From a virus (Duplodnaviria > Heunggongvirae > Uroviricota > Caudoviricetes), in IMG/VR virus record IMGVR_UViG_2703718840_000011: a DNA stretch of 17,603 nucleotides, one strand, 5' to 3'. Both the position numbers and the translations under genes were made by a program. Positions 5,661-12,204 of the stretch are shown here, one piece after another. Within the stretch, counting starts at the first letter, position 1, and each line of letters opens with the position of its first letter. The notes under the pieces were generated by a model. That model was not told the DNA's origin, did no database searches, and was given only the letters and a program-made list of their open reading frames with translations.

Positions 5661-5891
5661 GGTTTGATATTGATACTGGCGGCTATCCGGAGGAAACAAC
5701 ACGATCTCCACTGAAGCAGGTGCCGACGTTGGTTTCGGCAGGCGACGTAACTGCTCAACTATTGCTGCGCACGCCGCGCTCTGGAATTTGCGCCCCGCTG
5801 CGCTTATCAGACTCTTACCAGCAAACGCCCCTTTGTTGGGGTGTCGCCAGTACGTGTTCACGCTGGGCGGAAAAGGCAGGATCAGCTTCAT
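5652..5891 (-). pseudogene. rusA: RusA-family Holliday junction resolvase, N-terminal fragment (truncated at the deletion junction with J)
   Basis: MKLILPFPPSVNTYWRH... matches the RusA N-terminal LPxPPSxN motif. The ORF ends after 79 aa with non-homologous residues (YQYQTGP), whereas RusA is about 120 aa. GAGAGGGG RBS and ATGA overlap with the upstream gene are intact. Confidence 0.55.
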
Positions 5892-6214
5892 ACTTTCAGG
5901 CCCCTCTCATGTAACCAGTGGGCTGCACGCAGCCTGGCGTTTTCCTCACCGGCAAGCAGTGCGCGGATAATCCCGACCGCCTCGCTGTCGTCGTCCTTCA
6001 CAGCGGTATGAAGCGTTATCCCCCGTGCCACGCCACGCTTTATCGTGATGACGCCTTTTTTCTCCAGTGCGCGAAGATGCTCCACCGCTGCATTCACCGA
6101 ACGGTATCCCAGCATGGTTGCCACCTCCTGATTGGTTGGCGGAAAGCCACGCTCTTTCTGGTAAGAAATCAGCATATCCAGCACCTGCTGCTGGCATTGA
6201 GTTAACGTCGTCAT
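5888..6214 (-). CDS. Small winged-helix DNA-binding protein resembling the LexA N-terminal DNA-binding domain (no S24 peptidase domain)
   Basis: 108 aa; QQQVLDMLISYQKERGFPPTNQEVATMLGYRSVNAAVEHLRALEKKGVITIKRGVARGITL parallels the LexA DNA-binding domain (QQEVFDLI...[36 protein letters not shown]). ATGA overlaps at both ends and a GGAG RBS. Confidence 0.55.
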   Translation of the reverse strand: MTTLTQCQQQVLDMLISYQKERGFPPTNQEVATMLGYRSVNAAVEHLRALEKKGVITIKRGVARGITLHTAVKDDDSEAVGIIRALLAGEENARLRAAHWLHERGLKV

Positions 6215-6864
6215 GCCGCCATCTCCCTGACCAGTTTTTCCGCCTGCTGGCGAACCTGCACCAGAAAGGCTTCACCACATGCCTCAAGTTCATCGCGCCC
6301 GATGTAGCTGATTGCCGGTCCCTTCCAGGTCTTGTCGAAAACAGCAATAGCACCAGCGAAGAAAGCGCCTGTCGGCACCTGCTTCTCATCCTTCGGGATA
6401 AACCAGGCAGGCAGTTCAAAACCAATACGCCCGCGAATAAAAGCAATATGGTCCGCATCTTCCGGCCACCACACTTCGCTGGTGGCAGCTTTGATCAGGA
6501 AAACATAGCGCCCGCCCTTATCACGCATGGCACTGGCATGTTTCATGATGTAACGCATGCCGGTGATGTATTGTCCCTCATGCTGACTGGCGCGGCTGTA
6601 TGGGGGATTACCAAAGGCAGCACCTTTAAGCTCCGCAAGACGTTCTGACCAGTCATGCGCCAGCGCGTTATCTTCCGCCGTGTAATACGCGGCACATTTG
6701 GCGTTATCACCGTCAGTAAACAGATCCAGAACAAACGGGCCAAACAGGGTGTTAATTCCCCAGAAAATGTTGTCCGGCGTGCGCCACTGATCGCCCACTT
6801 CCTTCAGTTCATGGGCTGGTTTGTTCCGCAGTTCCACCAGCGCCTGGCAATATTTATTACTCAT
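6211..6864 (-). CDS. Phage-type DNA N6-adenine methyltransferase (Dam family)
   Basis: MSNKYCQALVELRNKPAHELKEVGDQWRTPDNIFWGINTLFGPFVLDLFTDGDNAKCAAYYTAEDNALAHDW... with catalytic NPPY motif (GNPPYS). I place the start at the internal ATG (6864, residue 12 of the track ORF), which overlaps the O-like stop by 1 nt and is preceded by a GGGGG RBS. Confidence 0.8.
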   Translation of the reverse strand: MSNKYCQALVELRNKPAHELKEVGDQWRTPDNIFWGINTLFGPFVLDLFTDGDNAKCAAYYTAEDNALAHDWSERLAELKGAAFGNPPYSRASQHEGQYITGMRYIMKHASAMRDKGGRYVFLIKAATSEVWWPEDADHIAFIRGRIGFELPAWFIPKDEKQVPTGAFFAGAIAVFDKTWKGPAISYIGRDELEACGEAFLVQVRQQAEKLVREMAA

Positions 6865-8165: not shown

Positions 8166-8776
8166 GCGTTAGTTTCTCCACAACCAGAAGCAATCGACGC
8201 CACGACGCCCGGAGCTGCACACTCGCGGGCGTCATTACTTTCTGAAATGCAAAAAATTTTGTAGACAAGTGCTGCATGCTCCTGCAGCTTCGAAATTGAG
8301 AGATACAGCTCGTCGTTAATTGCTGTCTTCTCATGCGGTTCCACTACACCGTCTTCGATTGCTGAACGAATCTGTTTTGAATAACTGCCGATCTGTTCAA
8401 TGACTTCCAGCAGACGCTGGTTAATATCGGCGTTGTCCACATCCTCGACGTCAGGAAGAGACACAAAGACGCCATTTGCAGACTGCGCCACAGCATCAGC
8501 AATGAAGTGAGTTCCACCAGCACGTTGCAAAATCATTGCCCATCCCAGCGGGAAAATCTGATCGCCATCAGCACGAAGGCGGTTAAATAATGCGTTCTCT
8601 GTTACATCCAGCCAGTCAGCTGCTTCAGCGTAACCACCCGGCAACTTTGCGATAGTTTTTCTGACAGCTTTCACGTACCACTCAGGCTGTTTTTCTACTT
8701 TCCAGTGATGCTTACCCACGGTTAGCCTCATCGTTCTGTGGTTTCTGTTAATCGATTTATCCATTAGATTTTTCAT
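8162..8776 (-). CDS. CII-like regulatory protein (phage 186 CII / YdaT-like); start uncertain
   Basis: Sits immediately downstream of cro. The segment [25 protein letters not shown] resembles the 186-CII-type motif (LRNKLNPEQPHQFTPPELWLL). The track ORF begins at a GTG (8833) inside cro; in-frame ATGs at about 8776, 8764 and 8731 are more plausible, none with a strong SD. Confidence 0.45.
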
Positions 8777-8957
8777 AAAGCTCAGGTTTAAATGGCAACC
8801 GTCCGCAAGTTCTATATGCAGCTTCTGCTGCACGTCCTTTTGGAATTAACTGGCCCGGACGGTTTCGCCACTGATAAACGGCTTCAGTTGTTATGCCGAA
8901 AAAAGCAGCAACTTTCTCAATACTGCCGAAGTAGCTTTCGATATCGTCAGTTGTCAT
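8757..8957 (-). CDS. Cro-like small HTH regulator (YdaS-type)
   Basis: 66 aa, divergent from the cI-like repressor with a ~97-bp operator-containing intergenic region; GGAGGG RBS. HTH-like segment VAAFFGITTEAVYQWRN. Confidence 0.65.
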   Translation of the reverse strand: MTTDDIESYFGSIEKVAAFFGITTEAVYQWRNRPGQLIPKGRAAEAAYRTCGRLPFKPELYEKSNG

Positions 8958-9054
8958 ACGCCCTCCAAACTAAGTTTTATTAGATGCTAATTACAAATCT
9001 ATCTTTGGTCAATAAAAACTAAGATTACTTAGCAATTCAAGAAATGGTGCTCCT
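8958..9054. promoter_or_regulatory. Immunity switch region (OR-like): divergent promoters with palindromic operator candidates
   Basis: Palindromes TTAGATGCTAA (about 8980-8990) and CTAAGATTACTTAG (about 9019-9032); ACTAAG repeated at about 8969 and 9018. Candidate minus-strand promoter TTGACC-17 bp-TAGCAT whose -10 overlaps the first palindrome. Confidence 0.4.
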
Positions 9055-9681
9055 ATGGAAACGGTTGGTCAGCGTATAAAAGCTCTGAGAAGAGTTACCA
9101 GAACGTCCCAGAAAGAATTGGGTAAATTTTGTGGAGTAAGCGACGTTGCTGTGGGGTACTGGGAGAAAGACATCAATACCCCTGGTGGGGAGGCACTTTC
9201 GAAATTAGCGAAGTTCTTCAATACGTCAATAGATTACATTCTTTATGGTGCTGAGTTTGAAGGCAAACTCGTCACAAACATGCGCAGAGTTCCTGTAATA
9301 TCGTGGGTTCAGGCTGGGCAGTTTACTGAGTGCAGGGCAGCAGAAGTGTTTAGTGAAGTGGACAAGTGGGTAGATACATCATTAAAGATTGGTGATAACT
9401 CATTTGCATTAGAGGTTAAAGGTGACTCCATGACTAACCCTAATGGCCTCCCAACAATACCAGAAGGCGCAACAGTGATTGTAGATCCAGATGCAGAACC
9501 TCGTCATGGAAAAATAGTCATCGCTCGACTTGATGGAACAAACGAAGCTACAGTAAAAAAATTAGTCATCGATGGCCCTCAAAAGTTTTTAGTGCCATTA
9601 AATCCTCGGTATCCCAACATCCCTATCAATGGTAATTGCCTTATCATTGGTGTAGTCAAAGGAGTTCAATACGAACTCTAA
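9055..9681 (+). CDS. cI-like prophage repressor (N-terminal XRE-type HTH, C-terminal S24 LexA-like autopeptidase)
   Basis: 208 aa; HTH QKELGKFCGVSDVAVGYWEKD; C-terminal domain with Ser nucleophile in GDSMTNP and Lys in ATVKKLVIDG, the hallmark of RecA-stimulated self-cleaving repressors. Confidence 0.85.
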   Translation: METVGQRIKALRRVTRTSQKELGKFCGVSDVAVGYWEKDINTPGGEALSKLAKFFNTSIDYILYGAEFEGKLVTNMRRVPVISWVQAGQFTECRAAEVFSEVDKWVDTSLKIGDNSFALEVKGDSMTNPNGLPTIPEGATVIVDPDAEPRHGKIVIARLDGTNEATVKKLVIDGPQKFLVPLNPRYPNIPINGNCLIIGVVKGVQYEL

Positions 9682-9695
9682 GACCTCTCTTCTCT

Positions 9696-9763
9696 AACTA
9701 AGGCACCGAACTAAGAAAAGTTTGGTGTTTTCTCTTGCCATAATAACTAAGTTAAGTTAGATT
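9696..9763 (+). promoter_or_regulatory. PL-like early-left promoter/operator candidate immediately downstream of cI
   Basis: Three AACTAAG copies (about 9696, 9709, 9745), sharing the ACTAAG core seen in the cI-cro intergenic region. Candidate promoter TTGCCA (about 9735-9740), 17-bp spacer containing AACTAAG, TAGATT (about 9758-9763). Confidence 0.35.
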
Positions 9764-9865
9764 TTATGTCAAAGATAACGAACAGGCAGGACGCCCACGA
9801 AGTAGCCGCCGGTGGCGTATGAATGACCGGATGATTCGTTAAATACTATGTGTAAGAGAGCGCAA

Positions 9866-10068
9866 ATGAACCGTTATTTCACATGCTCGTTTTGTGGCGC
9901 AAACGAGCTGCAGGCAAAAAAATCATCGCCAAAGGCGGAAAAGATGAAGTTGCTATCTGCTCTGAGTGCGTAGTCTTGTGTGTCGGAGCATTAATCAATA
10001 TCAGCACAACTATTCAGTTCACACCAAATGAGAATGCGCCTTTAGATGCGCGGAAATCTGGAGGTTAA
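9866..10068 (+). pseudogene. Small ClpX-N-terminal-type C4 zinc-finger protein ORF, split by a -1 frame change at an A7 run (slippery heptamer A AAA AAA)
   Basis: ATG at about 9866 opens MNRYFTCSFCGANELQAKK..., which stops after 35 codons. The track ORF 9883-10068 in the -1 frame continues ...KKIIAKGGKDEVAICSECVVLCVGAL. Joined, they give CSFCG...ICSECVVLC, similar to the ClpX zinc-binding domain (YCSFCGKSQHEV...YICDECVDLC). The frames meet in the A7 run at about 9916-9922. Confidence 0.5.
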
Positions 10069-10076
10069 AGAACAAA

Positions 10077-10352
10077 ATGAAAGTCCAGATTTTAAACAAT
10101 AGTGGTGAAGTCGTTTGGTCATACGACATAGCCGCTCCTGTAGATCAGAGCGGCGATAGCTGGACCAATGGGAAACATCAGATTATGGCTGGAGTTGTAT
10201 TCTCTTTACACCGTGCTTTGGAACAGGCTGAAGTATTTCCATCAGACCCTGAATGGAAATGGCCTTTTTCTATTTGTCCAAATTCGGAGAGCACATTTCA
10301 GAAAATTGGTCAGAAAGTCGCACTCGAAGAGCATCAGCCAACTGTTTTCTGA
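10077..10352 (+). CDS. Hypothetical protein (91 aa)
   Basis: GGAGG about 10 nt upstream of the ATG and immediately after the stop of the zinc-finger ORF, which is operon-like. No family recognised. The 3' end overlaps a convergent ORF. Confidence 0.45.
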   Translation: MKVQILNNSGEVVWSYDIAAPVDQSGDSWTNGKHQIMAGVVFSLHRALEQAEVFPSDPEWKWPFSICPNSESTFQKIGQKVALEEHQPTVF

Positions 10353-10515
10353 TTTTTTCAGGTAACTCGTCGGCATCGCAGAAACAACAACGCTCGATCA
10401 TGTTGAAAGCCGATTCGTAGAACTGTTTCTGCTGAGTGTCGCTGAGACAGGAAAAGAGCGACGTTACGATGATTTTATTAATTGCATTATCAAGTTCTTT
10501 TTCATCAAAAGTCAT
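10270..10515 (-). CDS. Hypothetical protein (81 aa), convergent to the early-left operon
   Basis: Plausible amino-acid composition; AAGGAAAA RBS-like sequence 5-6 nt upstream of the ATG. Its 3' end overlaps the + strand 91-aa ORF by about 83 bp, so one of the two is probably shorter or not real. Confidence 0.35.
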   Translation of the reverse strand: MTFDEKELDNAINKIIVTSLFSCLSDTQQKQFYESAFNMIERCCFCDADELPEKIRKQLADALRVRLSDQFSEMCSPNLDK

Positions 10516-10769
10516 TTGATTTTCCTTTTATGTATACGGGCTTAAAAGGATACCACCGAGCCTGAAGTGGTGAAAAGACAGGCACATAACAGCTAAGTAT
10601 TTTCAACCAGAGAGAATCCTTAGCGTTGTGGTGAATGCGGCTCAGCGCACGCGGGTTAAGGTTGAGGCTGACAGTCGACCTTCTGTGGATACCCACCCGT
10701 CTGGTGTGCAACCTTCGCCAGGCACCGGGAGGCACCCGGCACCACAACTTTATGCTGTGTGTAGTCCTG

Positions 10770-10815
10770 GCGGTACCAGTTTGTACCCTTGCTTCCGGCT
10801 GGTACCGCTCTTTTT
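10770..10815 (+). terminator. Rho-independent terminator inside the early-left transcription unit
   Basis: GCGGTACCAG - 19-nt loop - CTGGTACCGC followed by TCTTTTTAC, a 10-bp perfect stem with a T-run on the + strand. Confidence 0.5.
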
Positions 10816-10904
10816 ACAAAACAGAGAAGAGCATCACCGGACGACGGGCTCATAACCCAATCCATCCGGGCGGCTGCCACCGCAGGTGTTCTTCTCTGTT
10901 TTGT
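10816..10904 (+). other. Large stem-loop: perfect 15-bp inverted repeat (ACAAAACAGAGAAGA ... TCTTCTCTGTTTTGT) separated by ~59 nt of GC-rich sequence, in the leader of the yfdP-like gene
   Basis: Seen directly, immediately after the terminator T-run and about 50 nt before the next gene's RBS. The stem can extend by a few pairs and the interior contains sub-hairpins. Confidence 0.45.
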
Positions 10905-10952
10905 GGAGAAACCAACCGACCTTGCAGGGTCGATATGATGAGGAGCAGCAAA

Positions 10953-11315
10953 ATGGCTAGCGAACGCAGTACTGATGTGCAGGCATTTATCGGGGAGCTG
11001 GACGGCGGCGTATTTGAAACCAAAATCGGCGCAGTTCTCAGTGAAGTCGCTTCCGGTGTGATGAACACGAAAACCAAAGGTAAGGTCTCGCTCAACCTGG
11101 AAATCGAACCGTTTGATGAGAACCGTGTGAAAATAAAACATAAACTCTCATATGTTCGCCCGACTAACCGCGGGAAAATTTCCGAAGAAGACACCACCGA
11201 AACACCGATGTATGTCAATCGCGGTGGTCGCCTGACTATTCTGCAGGAAGACCAGGGACAATTACTGACTCTTGCCGGTGAACCTGACGGAAAACTCCGC
11301 GCAGCAGGTCATTAA
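10953..11315 (+). CDS. Hypothetical protein, 120 aa (YfdP-like by position and length)
   Basis: Start chosen at the internal ATG preceded by GAGGAG with 7-nt spacing. The long track ORF from 10635 is an artefact of GC-rich structured sequence upstream. Length and position match what I recall for yfdP of CPS-53; the sequence identity is not confirmed. Confidence 0.55.
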   Translation: MASERSTDVQAFIGELDGGVFETKIGAVLSEVASGVMNTKTKGKVSLNLEIEPFDENRVKIKHKLSYVRPTNRGKISEEDTTETPMYVNRGGRLTILQEDQGQLLTLAGEPDGKLRAAGH

Positions 11316-11379
11316 TATCGTTTTTAATTAACTGATTATTTATCTCATCACTGAATATTTTATATAGTGAGGACTGATT

Positions 11380-12204
11380 ATGTCTCAGAACTTAGACGCA
11401 ACCGCAATTAATCAAATCCATGCCCTTATTTCTGCTCAGGGTGTTAATGAAATTATCAGTAAGATTGGTGCCGATGCTGTGGCATTGCCTGAGAATTTCC
11501 GCATTCATGATCTGGAAAAATTTAATTTAAATCGCTTCCGTTTCCGTGGTGCGCTTTCCACTGCCAGCATCGATGACTTTACCCGTTATTCTAAAGATCT
11601 TGCAGATGAAGGCACCCGCTGCTTTATCGATGCTGATAATATGCGTGCCGTCAGTGTGCTTAACCTGGGTACTATTGATGAACCAGGTCACGCAGATAAC
11701 ACCGCCACTCTCAAACTGAAAAAGACAGCACCGTTCTCTGCCCTGTTGTCTGTTAACGGCGAGCGTAACTCCCAGAAGTCACTGGCAGAATGGATTGAAG
11801 ACTGGGCCGACTACCTTGTGGGCTTTGATGCTAATGGTGACGCCATTCAGGCAACCAAAGCTGCTGCGGCGATCCGTAAAATCACAATTGAAGCGAACCA
11901 GACCGCTGATTTTGAAGATAATGACTTCAGCGGCAAACGCTCCCTGATGGAGTCTGTCGAAGCGAAGACCAAAGACATTATGCCTGTGGCATTTGAATTT
12001 AAATGCGTTCCGTTTGAAGGTCTGAAAGAACGTCCGTTTAAATTACGCCTCAGCATTATCACTGGCGATCGTCCTGTACTGGTTCTGCGCATTATTCAGC
12101 TGGAAGCGGTGCAGGAAGAAATGGCTAACGAATTTCGTGATCTGCTTGTTGAGAAATTCAAAGACAGCAAAGTAGAAACCTTTATTGGTACTTTCACCGC
12201 CTGA
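11380..12204 (+). CDS. yfdQ: YfdQ-like prophage protein (274 aa), function unknown
   Basis: 274-aa ORF with GAGGA RBS. Length, N-terminus ([14 protein letters not shown]...) and the yfdP-Q-R-S-T gene order match my recollection of the CPS-53/KplE1 yfdQ gene. Symbol given on that recollection, not a search. Confidence 0.7.

Follow-up and report, generated by a model that had tools for sequence, protein, structure and literature searches.

The first gene downstream of the cI-type repressor in an Escherichia coli prophage is divided between two reading frames, and the question raised by this locus is whether the break is a lesion or a device. The preliminary description, which noted that the frames meet in a run of seven A residues, offered either a homopolymer indel or a recoding or phase-variable switch. 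The stretch of DNA that was analyzed here (the window, 17,603 nt) is 100% identical to E. coli strain 51008369SK1, where it forms part of a lambdoid prophage integrated near yejO/narP. Our findings indicate that the A7 run is very probably an ordinary inherited frameshift mutation, from A8 to A7, in a conserved accessory phage gene and not a site of programmed recoding. Of the readings offered, the indel is thus the one that stood, on the strength of A8 homologues, while recoding is contradicted by the homologues and a rapid switch by the uniformity of clones and by the absence of the tract from part of the family.

The split gene and its place in the prophage

The features of the repressor-proximal region to which the argument refers are as follows.

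9055..9681, plus strand: cI-type repressor with HTH_3 and Peptidase_S24 domains, identical to WP_000450737.1
9700..9736, plus strand: terminator-like hairpin and U tract just past the cI stop codon, at the t_imm position (fold -15.1 kcal/mol, z -3.18)
9735..9763, plus strand: PL-like sigma-70 promoter, TTGCCA-17-TAGATT, recognized by sequence
9776..9843, plus strand: structured leader RNA of 68 nt at the 5' end of the early-left transcript, a three-way junction (covariance model 90.5 bits; covariation)
9866..10068, plus strand: gene with a frameshift that specifies, in its intact 204-nt form, a standalone ClpX-type zinc-binding-domain protein of 67 aa; the window copy has 203 nt
9866..9973, plus strand: zero-frame ORF of 35 codons with the first CxxC only (ATG at 9866, TAG stop at 9971-9973)
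9916..9922, plus strand: A7 run, the probable site of a one-base deletion (A8 in intact alleles and A9 in CX15, from alignments)
9923..10068, plus strand: remainder of the gene in the -1 frame, with the second CxxC and a tail of low model confidence (IIAKGGKDEVAICSECVV...; stop at 10066-10068)
9927..9937, plus strand: small hairpin CGCC-AAA-GGCG, 4 nt past the heptamer, not credible as a frameshift stimulator
10077..10352, plus strand: next early-left gene, 91 aa, matching phrog_3195 (function unknown), with DNA that matches SfV orf33

The elements reported earlier, namely the 35-codon ORF, the -1 frame with the second CxxC, the A7 heptamer, and the hairpin, are all present at these positions. 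The zero-frame ORF translates as MNRYFTCSFCGANELQAKK followed by SSPKAEKMKLLSALSA, the latter being 16 out-of-frame residues that are present only in A7 alleles, and the -1 frame runs onward as IIAKGGKDEVAICSECVVLCVGAL.... Codons 17 to 19 are GCA AAA AAA, and positions 9916-9922 read A_AAA_AAA in the zero frame, which is formally the slippery heptamer that had been claimed; TCAT follows at 9923-9926 and then CGCC-AAA-GGCG. A -1 slip at this heptamer yields exactly the 67-aa protein that is annotated in other strains. In the window allele, C7/C10 and C32/C35 lie in different frames and no single polypeptide has CxxC...CxxC; it takes an A8 allele, or the conceptual product of a -1 slip, to complete the four-cysteine motif. 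A 61-aa ORF at 9883-10068 was considered as an alternative product and rejected because it is without the first CxxC.

The assignment of the joined product as a ClpX-type C4 zinc-finger mini-protein was borne out by its Pfam score, its matches to ClpX structures in the PDB, and the fold of its model, all of which agree. The joined 67-aa sequence scores 41.4 bits against Pfam zf-C4_ClpX (PF06689; cut-off 27, E 1.3e-10) and aligns with the solved ClpX zinc-binding domain (PDB entries 2ds5 and 1ovx), with an identity of 36-41% over ~43 residues. An AlphaFold model, with a mean pLDDT of 70.9, can be superposed on 2ds5, 2ds6, and 2ds8 at an rmsd of 1.4-1.7 Å, with TM-scores of 0.80-0.84 on the target; its top PDB matches are these three entries and 1ovx, and ClpX zinc-binding-domain entries are the sole convincing ones. 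The NCBIfam ClpX models match residues 5-45 only, and an identity as the ClpX unfoldase itself (PRK05342 / TIGR00382) was rejected at 25.8 bits against a cut-off of 359. In PHROGs the protein belongs to phrog_5259, function unknown, and its intact allele, WP_001083098.1, is annotated in RefSeq as "ClpX C4-type zinc finger protein". A PADLOC scan of the protein and its two neighbors gave no defense-system match, and a search of the literature for the ClpX zinc-finger family by name turned up no study of its function.

The zinc-binding domain of ClpX recognizes adaptor tails and certain substrates. Since the phage protein is a free-standing copy of this recognition domain, we infer that it may function as a ClpXP decoy: judging from the known role of the domain, the intact protein would compete, early after induction, for the ligands of the ClpX zinc-binding domain. 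Candidate ligands would be SspB-type adaptor tails and domain-recognized substrates such as lambda O-type replication initiators, and decoy binding of this kind would shield early phage proteins from ClpXP.

It had been proposed that the gene sits in the slot where lambda carries rexAB, a position that is inside the cI transcript, and this part of the preliminary description did not hold. A terminator-like hairpin, a PL-like promoter, and the structured leader separate the gene from cI; with these three elements in between, the zinc-finger gene is therefore the first gene of a PL-type early-left operon, the position that is occupied by N in lambda and by nun in HK022. The hairpin and U tract at 9700-9736, which overlap the -35 of the promoter, are probably the terminator of the repressor transcript, and a terminator is annotated at the matching place in SfV. 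The order of repressor, ~200 nt, and zinc-finger gene recurs in all relatives examined. The gene is cassette-like (9844-10068 compared with 1265-1290 of the SfV locus, L106): in SfV and many E. coli prophages the leader joins the orf33/91-aa homologue directly, and the gene is found in 98 of 5426 complete E. coli genomes versus 1386 for the leader.

Several further observations concern the annotation and the state of the surrounding prophage. The 91-aa ORF, which starts 8 nt past the stop of the zinc-finger gene, is annotated in other strains (WP_001514782.1 and WP_001306230.1) and unannotated in the source strain, as is the frameshifted zinc-finger gene. On the minus strand at 5732-6385 of the window (10774-11427 of IMG/VR locus L010), a phage N-6-adenine methyltransferase gene has an internal stop, and a truncated site-specific methyltransferase lies further along the same prophage; this damage is consistent with general prophage decay. 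When 9000-10800 was searched against Rfam, neither the frameshift site nor the leader gave a match; the sole match, which was below threshold, lay at 10603-10788 on the plus strand and was to STnc100, a family of prophage sRNAs (RF02076; 33.7 bits, where the gathering score is 47; E 3.8e-5). PGAP calls this stretch a "frameshifted hypothetical protein" in nearly every strain that has the segment, and by its sequence it may instead be an sRNA gene of the STnc100/PasD group, which is discussed in bioRxiv 10.64898/2026.05.13.724894.

Tract length in homologues and the origin of the missing base

The closest comparison is provided by E. coli G4/9 and C4, which have identical cI (WP_000450737.1), Cro, and YmfL and carry A8 within the intact 204-nt gene for WP_001083098.1. 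Over 8380-10037, both differ from the window only by a SNP at 8477 and by one extra A in the tract. Among 99 E. coli records with the gene, the tract is A8 in 64, as counted by an exact 80-nt stretch, and A7 in 25, as counted by an exact 79-nt stretch; it is one base longer in four (CX04, CX07, CX15, and CX21), of which CX15 was read and has A9. The close group of 49 loci in IMG/VR divides into 44 with A8 and 5 with A7. About a quarter of the E. coli copies thus have A7, and they fall on at least three haplotypes: UPEC_U013 and RMDEC465 carry it on two haplotypes other than that of the window, with a different repressor, and the A9 of CX15 is found on yet another. The tract is a recurrent indel site; some of the single A7 and A9 cases (such as UPEC_U013, RMDEC465, and the CX series) could be sequencing errors.

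Many independent assemblies, made by different laboratories from different hosts, contain the A7 haplotype of the window at 100% identity over ~3.1 kb. These include CCUG 73778 (Sweden) and ST131 strain 4224 (Houston), as well as dog, cat, and human isolates with 4.85-Mb chromosomes, and the haplotype is also present in four IMG/VR loci, L065 and L067 among them. Because this exact haplotype recurs in independent assemblies, its A7 is inherited and is not an assembly slip. Tract length is also uniform within clonal sets: the seven Ec-050 assemblies have A7, as do DDG206 and DDG220, HYM1 and T-HYM1 have A8, and the four CX records agree with one another in being one base longer. Such uniformity in close isolates argues against rapid phase variation.

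The wider family, for which Salmonella phage 118970_sal3, several metagenomic prophages, and one 120-aa variant were compared, has one continuous frame across the site in all distant relatives examined. The in-frame sequence there is GCA AAA AAG CTC in the L070-type loci, GCG ATA AAG ATC in the L088-type, GCG ATG AAG ATC in the L083-type, and GCG AAA AAA ATC in L007. Purifying selection acts across the site, with dN of 0.08-0.27, dS large or saturated, and dN/dS of at most 0.26 where dS could be estimated. The A8 tract itself has been kept in several lineages with saturated synonymous sites (E. coli, Salmonella sal3, and the P0010 locus), which counts only weakly against a simple deletion because AAA is the preferred lysine codon and the independent lineages are few. 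When A7 and A8 homologues are aligned, recoding is refuted in both ways, in that close homologues are uninterrupted with A8 and several distant ones are non-slippery.

Programmed -1 ribosomal frameshifting on A_AAA_AAA, aided by the small hairpin, would give the 67-aa protein along with a 35-aa product. This reading, to which we attach almost no credence, draws on the correct frame of the heptamer and on the exact wild-type protein that a -1 slip rebuilds, and certain IS elements do use A_AAA_AAA where it precedes a stem-loop (PMC4066793). Here, however, most homologues have A8 and need no shift, distant homologues are in frame through a non-slippery site, and the 16-residue zero-frame extension is confined to A7 alleles and is not conserved among homologues. 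The in-frame X_XXY_YYZ heptamer (GC A_AAA_AAA) is accompanied by neither a conserved two-frame layout nor a conserved stimulator: the 60 nt 3' of the heptamer fold at -12.8 kcal/mol, no better than chance (shuffles -12.1 +/- 2.5, z -0.28), the 4-bp hairpin is not kept in relatives and its pairing is lost in L005 and L007, and no Shine-Dalgarno-like element at dnaX-type spacing is evident in the window sequence. A profile scan of genome contigs with the protein alignment added only two distant Clostridia matches (28-31% identity), which are uninformative for the A tract.

The remaining readings take the variation in length as their point of departure. A phase-variable contingency switch, in which the tract toggles among A7, A8, and A9 at high frequency and so makes an early gene alternate between on and off within a population of prophages, would accommodate the three known lengths, the spread of A7 and A9 over several haplotypes, and the retention of A8 in diverged lineages. 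We consider it quite improbable. The length polymorphism between strains that is expected of a contingency locus was found, but variation within clones and a family-wide tract were not, as close isolates never differ and the tract is absent from the L070, L083, and L088 groups; moreover, the promoter is repressed in the lysogen, so that selection would be blind to the on or off state until induction. In mismatch-repair-proficient E. coli, a run of A8 is an indel hot spot but falls short of a classical contingency tract. Long-read assemblies often under-call homopolymers, and it is conceivable that the true tract is A8 with one A under-called, as may have happened in the single cases named above; as an explanation of the window this is very unlikely, given the recurrence of the exact A7 haplotype in assemblies from different laboratories and in IMG/VR, and given that sister haplotypes that were assembled likewise read A8. 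We give a small chance to the possibility that the A tract is a tuning device, by which slippage of RNA polymerase or a -1 slip of the ribosome would let A7 alleles provide a low set dose of a protein that mimics the ClpX zinc-binding domain, and by which recurrent A7/A8/A9 changes would set, lineage by lineage, the dose of a ClpXP decoy at induction.

The inherited one-base deletion is the reading that we prefer. One A has very probably been lost from A8 (GCA AAA AAA ATC, Ala-Lys-Lys-Ile) by replication slippage in a homopolymer indel hot spot, and the deletion has then been passed on with the prophage lineage. The gene accordingly stops at 35 codons and retains half of its zinc site, which leaves the strain in effect without the protein; where the gene is intact, it heads a PL-type operon that is silenced in a lysogen and turned on by induction or infection. 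Traces of full-length product might arise by unprogrammed RNA-polymerase slippage, with one A added, or by a -1 ribosomal slip on A_AAA_AAA. The product of A7 alleles could be recovered only by leaky slippage of this kind, and nothing indicates selection for it. The presence of other decayed genes in the prophage supports the deletion, as does the scarcity of the heptamer AAAAAAA, in whatever frame, in E. coli genes, which the authors who described it put down to transcriptional slippage and a high indel rate (PMC4066793). Besides the weak evidence of the retained A8 tract, two observations count against the deletion, namely, the frequency of A7 and its occurrence on at least three haplotypes, which mean either that the site is very mutable or that loss of the gene is tolerated or favored, and the correct frame of the heptamer, with which some expression from A7 alleles is possible.

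A structured leader RNA at the start of the early-left transcript

The leader at 9776-9843 consists of the stems P1, P2 (GGC-AGGAC-GCC), and P3. When 38 diverse copies are aligned, paired cells make up 95.5% of the total, versus 69.7% in shuffles, with 0 of 500 shuffles as high and with slid controls reaching at most 42.5%. Compensatory changes are found in 12 of the 14 pairs, and the covariation score is 0.621, compared with 0.152 for shuffled alignments. The single-stranded CACGAAGUAGC is invariant, and the P2 hairpin loop contains GGA in every one of the 38 aligned copies. The leader is nearly unchanged while the promoter/operator upstream and the genes downstream have been swapped; thus the promoter stretch at 9735-9763 varies with immunity type and the leader behind it stays constant.

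According to the covariance model, each immunity region has exactly one copy, always on the PL side. The leader is annotated in none of the 1386 complete E. coli genomes that have it, and its distribution extends well beyond them. It lies downstream of the repressor gene in SfV, ZF40, SPN3UB, and Aeromonas pAEv1818, and in a Klebsiella prophage it lies beside a gene for an HTH protein and precedes early recombination genes. BLAST matches alone place it in SfII, SfIV, and ST64B as well, and it is also found in T5-like Providencia phages, including vB_PreS_PR1, where it falls within the annotated terminal repeat. In Providencia phage PSTCR5 (L103), at ~1272-1295, CGCTCTTTAA occurs within ~10 nt past the leader and resembles a boxA element. 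A second subgroup of leader copies is followed by a conserved TTAACGCGCAGCAGGT.

Rfam 15 contains no match to the leader, and a literature search with leader sequence strings returned only unrelated primers. The anti-sRNAs AgvB and AsxR were considered as its identity and rejected, both being Rfam families that it does not match. The leader opens an early transcript and is tied to no particular phage gene as a partner, which suggests that it acts with host machinery. Our leading guess is that it may act on RNA polymerase as put does; no less conceivable is that it contributes to transcript stability or, by way of the GGA hairpin loop, binds a host RNA-binding protein such as CsrA. It may represent a new class of RNA, either leaders of early operons or antiterminators.

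Relation to known systems

The frameshift itself is of little importance, since it amounts to the loss of one base from a gene whose intact form RefSeq already lists for other strains, and its main lesson is one of caution: an in-frame slippery heptamer is insufficient to call recoding, and comparison with homologues settles the matter quickly. The site resembles the -1 sites of dnaX and of IS elements (A_AAA_AAG or A_AAA_AAA with stimulators) in having an in-frame all-A heptamer within an E. coli mobile element. It differs from them in that the need for a shift, the stimulatory structure, the upstream Shine-Dalgarno-like element, and the zero-frame product are not conserved, and in that the unshifted gene is the norm in the zinc-finger family.

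Efficient slippage takes place on tracts of ~9 nt or more. The locus is similar to pseudogenes with leaky rescue in that a one-base indel lies in a coding A run and low-level restoration by polymerase or ribosome is possible, and it is unlike them in that A7 is shorter than the tracts that slip efficiently. Homopolymer frameshift pseudogenes with such leaky transcriptional-slippage rescue have been described for poly-A tracts in E. coli and endosymbionts (Baranov et al. 2005, as cited in PMC4066793).

The intact gene represents an uncharacterized family of free-standing mimics of the ClpX zinc-binding domain, which form the first early gene of many enterobacterial prophages, a placement that suggests phage interference with substrate or adaptor recognition by ClpXP. 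As in the N-terminal domain of ClpX (PDB 2DS5, 2DS8, and 1OVX), a CxxC...CxxC zinc ribbon precedes a helix in the protein, and the two have the motif CSFCG...K(K/L)IA...ICxECVxLC in common. Unlike ClpX, it is free-standing at 67 aa, without an AAA+ ATPase module, and is encoded by a phage as the first gene of an early-left operon; it also has a 3-residue insertion between the cysteine pairs and a C-terminal tail of low model confidence, neither of which belongs to the ClpX domain.

The leader RNA, which is widespread, covaries strongly, and occupies the position of the HK022 put antiterminator, is a more interesting object than the frameshift. Its position is put-like, at the start of the PL transcript and upstream of the first early gene, and the same layout is found in SfV, ZF40, SPN3UB, and pAEv1818. 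By sequence, the two are distinct: blastn detected no similarity between the leader and HK022 putL, and the leader covariance model (R1) gave no significant match at the put sites, with scores of at most 7.9 bits in HK022 and at most 10.7 bits (E 0.36) in HK639, where the comparison used the putL-like annotation in GenBank. If it is true that the leader modifies RNA polymerase, it would constitute a second class of protein-independent antitermination RNA. Like the put sites of HK022 and HK639, it is a structured RNA of ~70 nt right after PL that has no fixed phage-encoded partner gene. It differs from them in sequence, in number and placement, with a single copy per phage that is always on the PL side, and in architecture, being a three-way junction that has a closing stem, whereas put consists of two side-by-side stem-loops.
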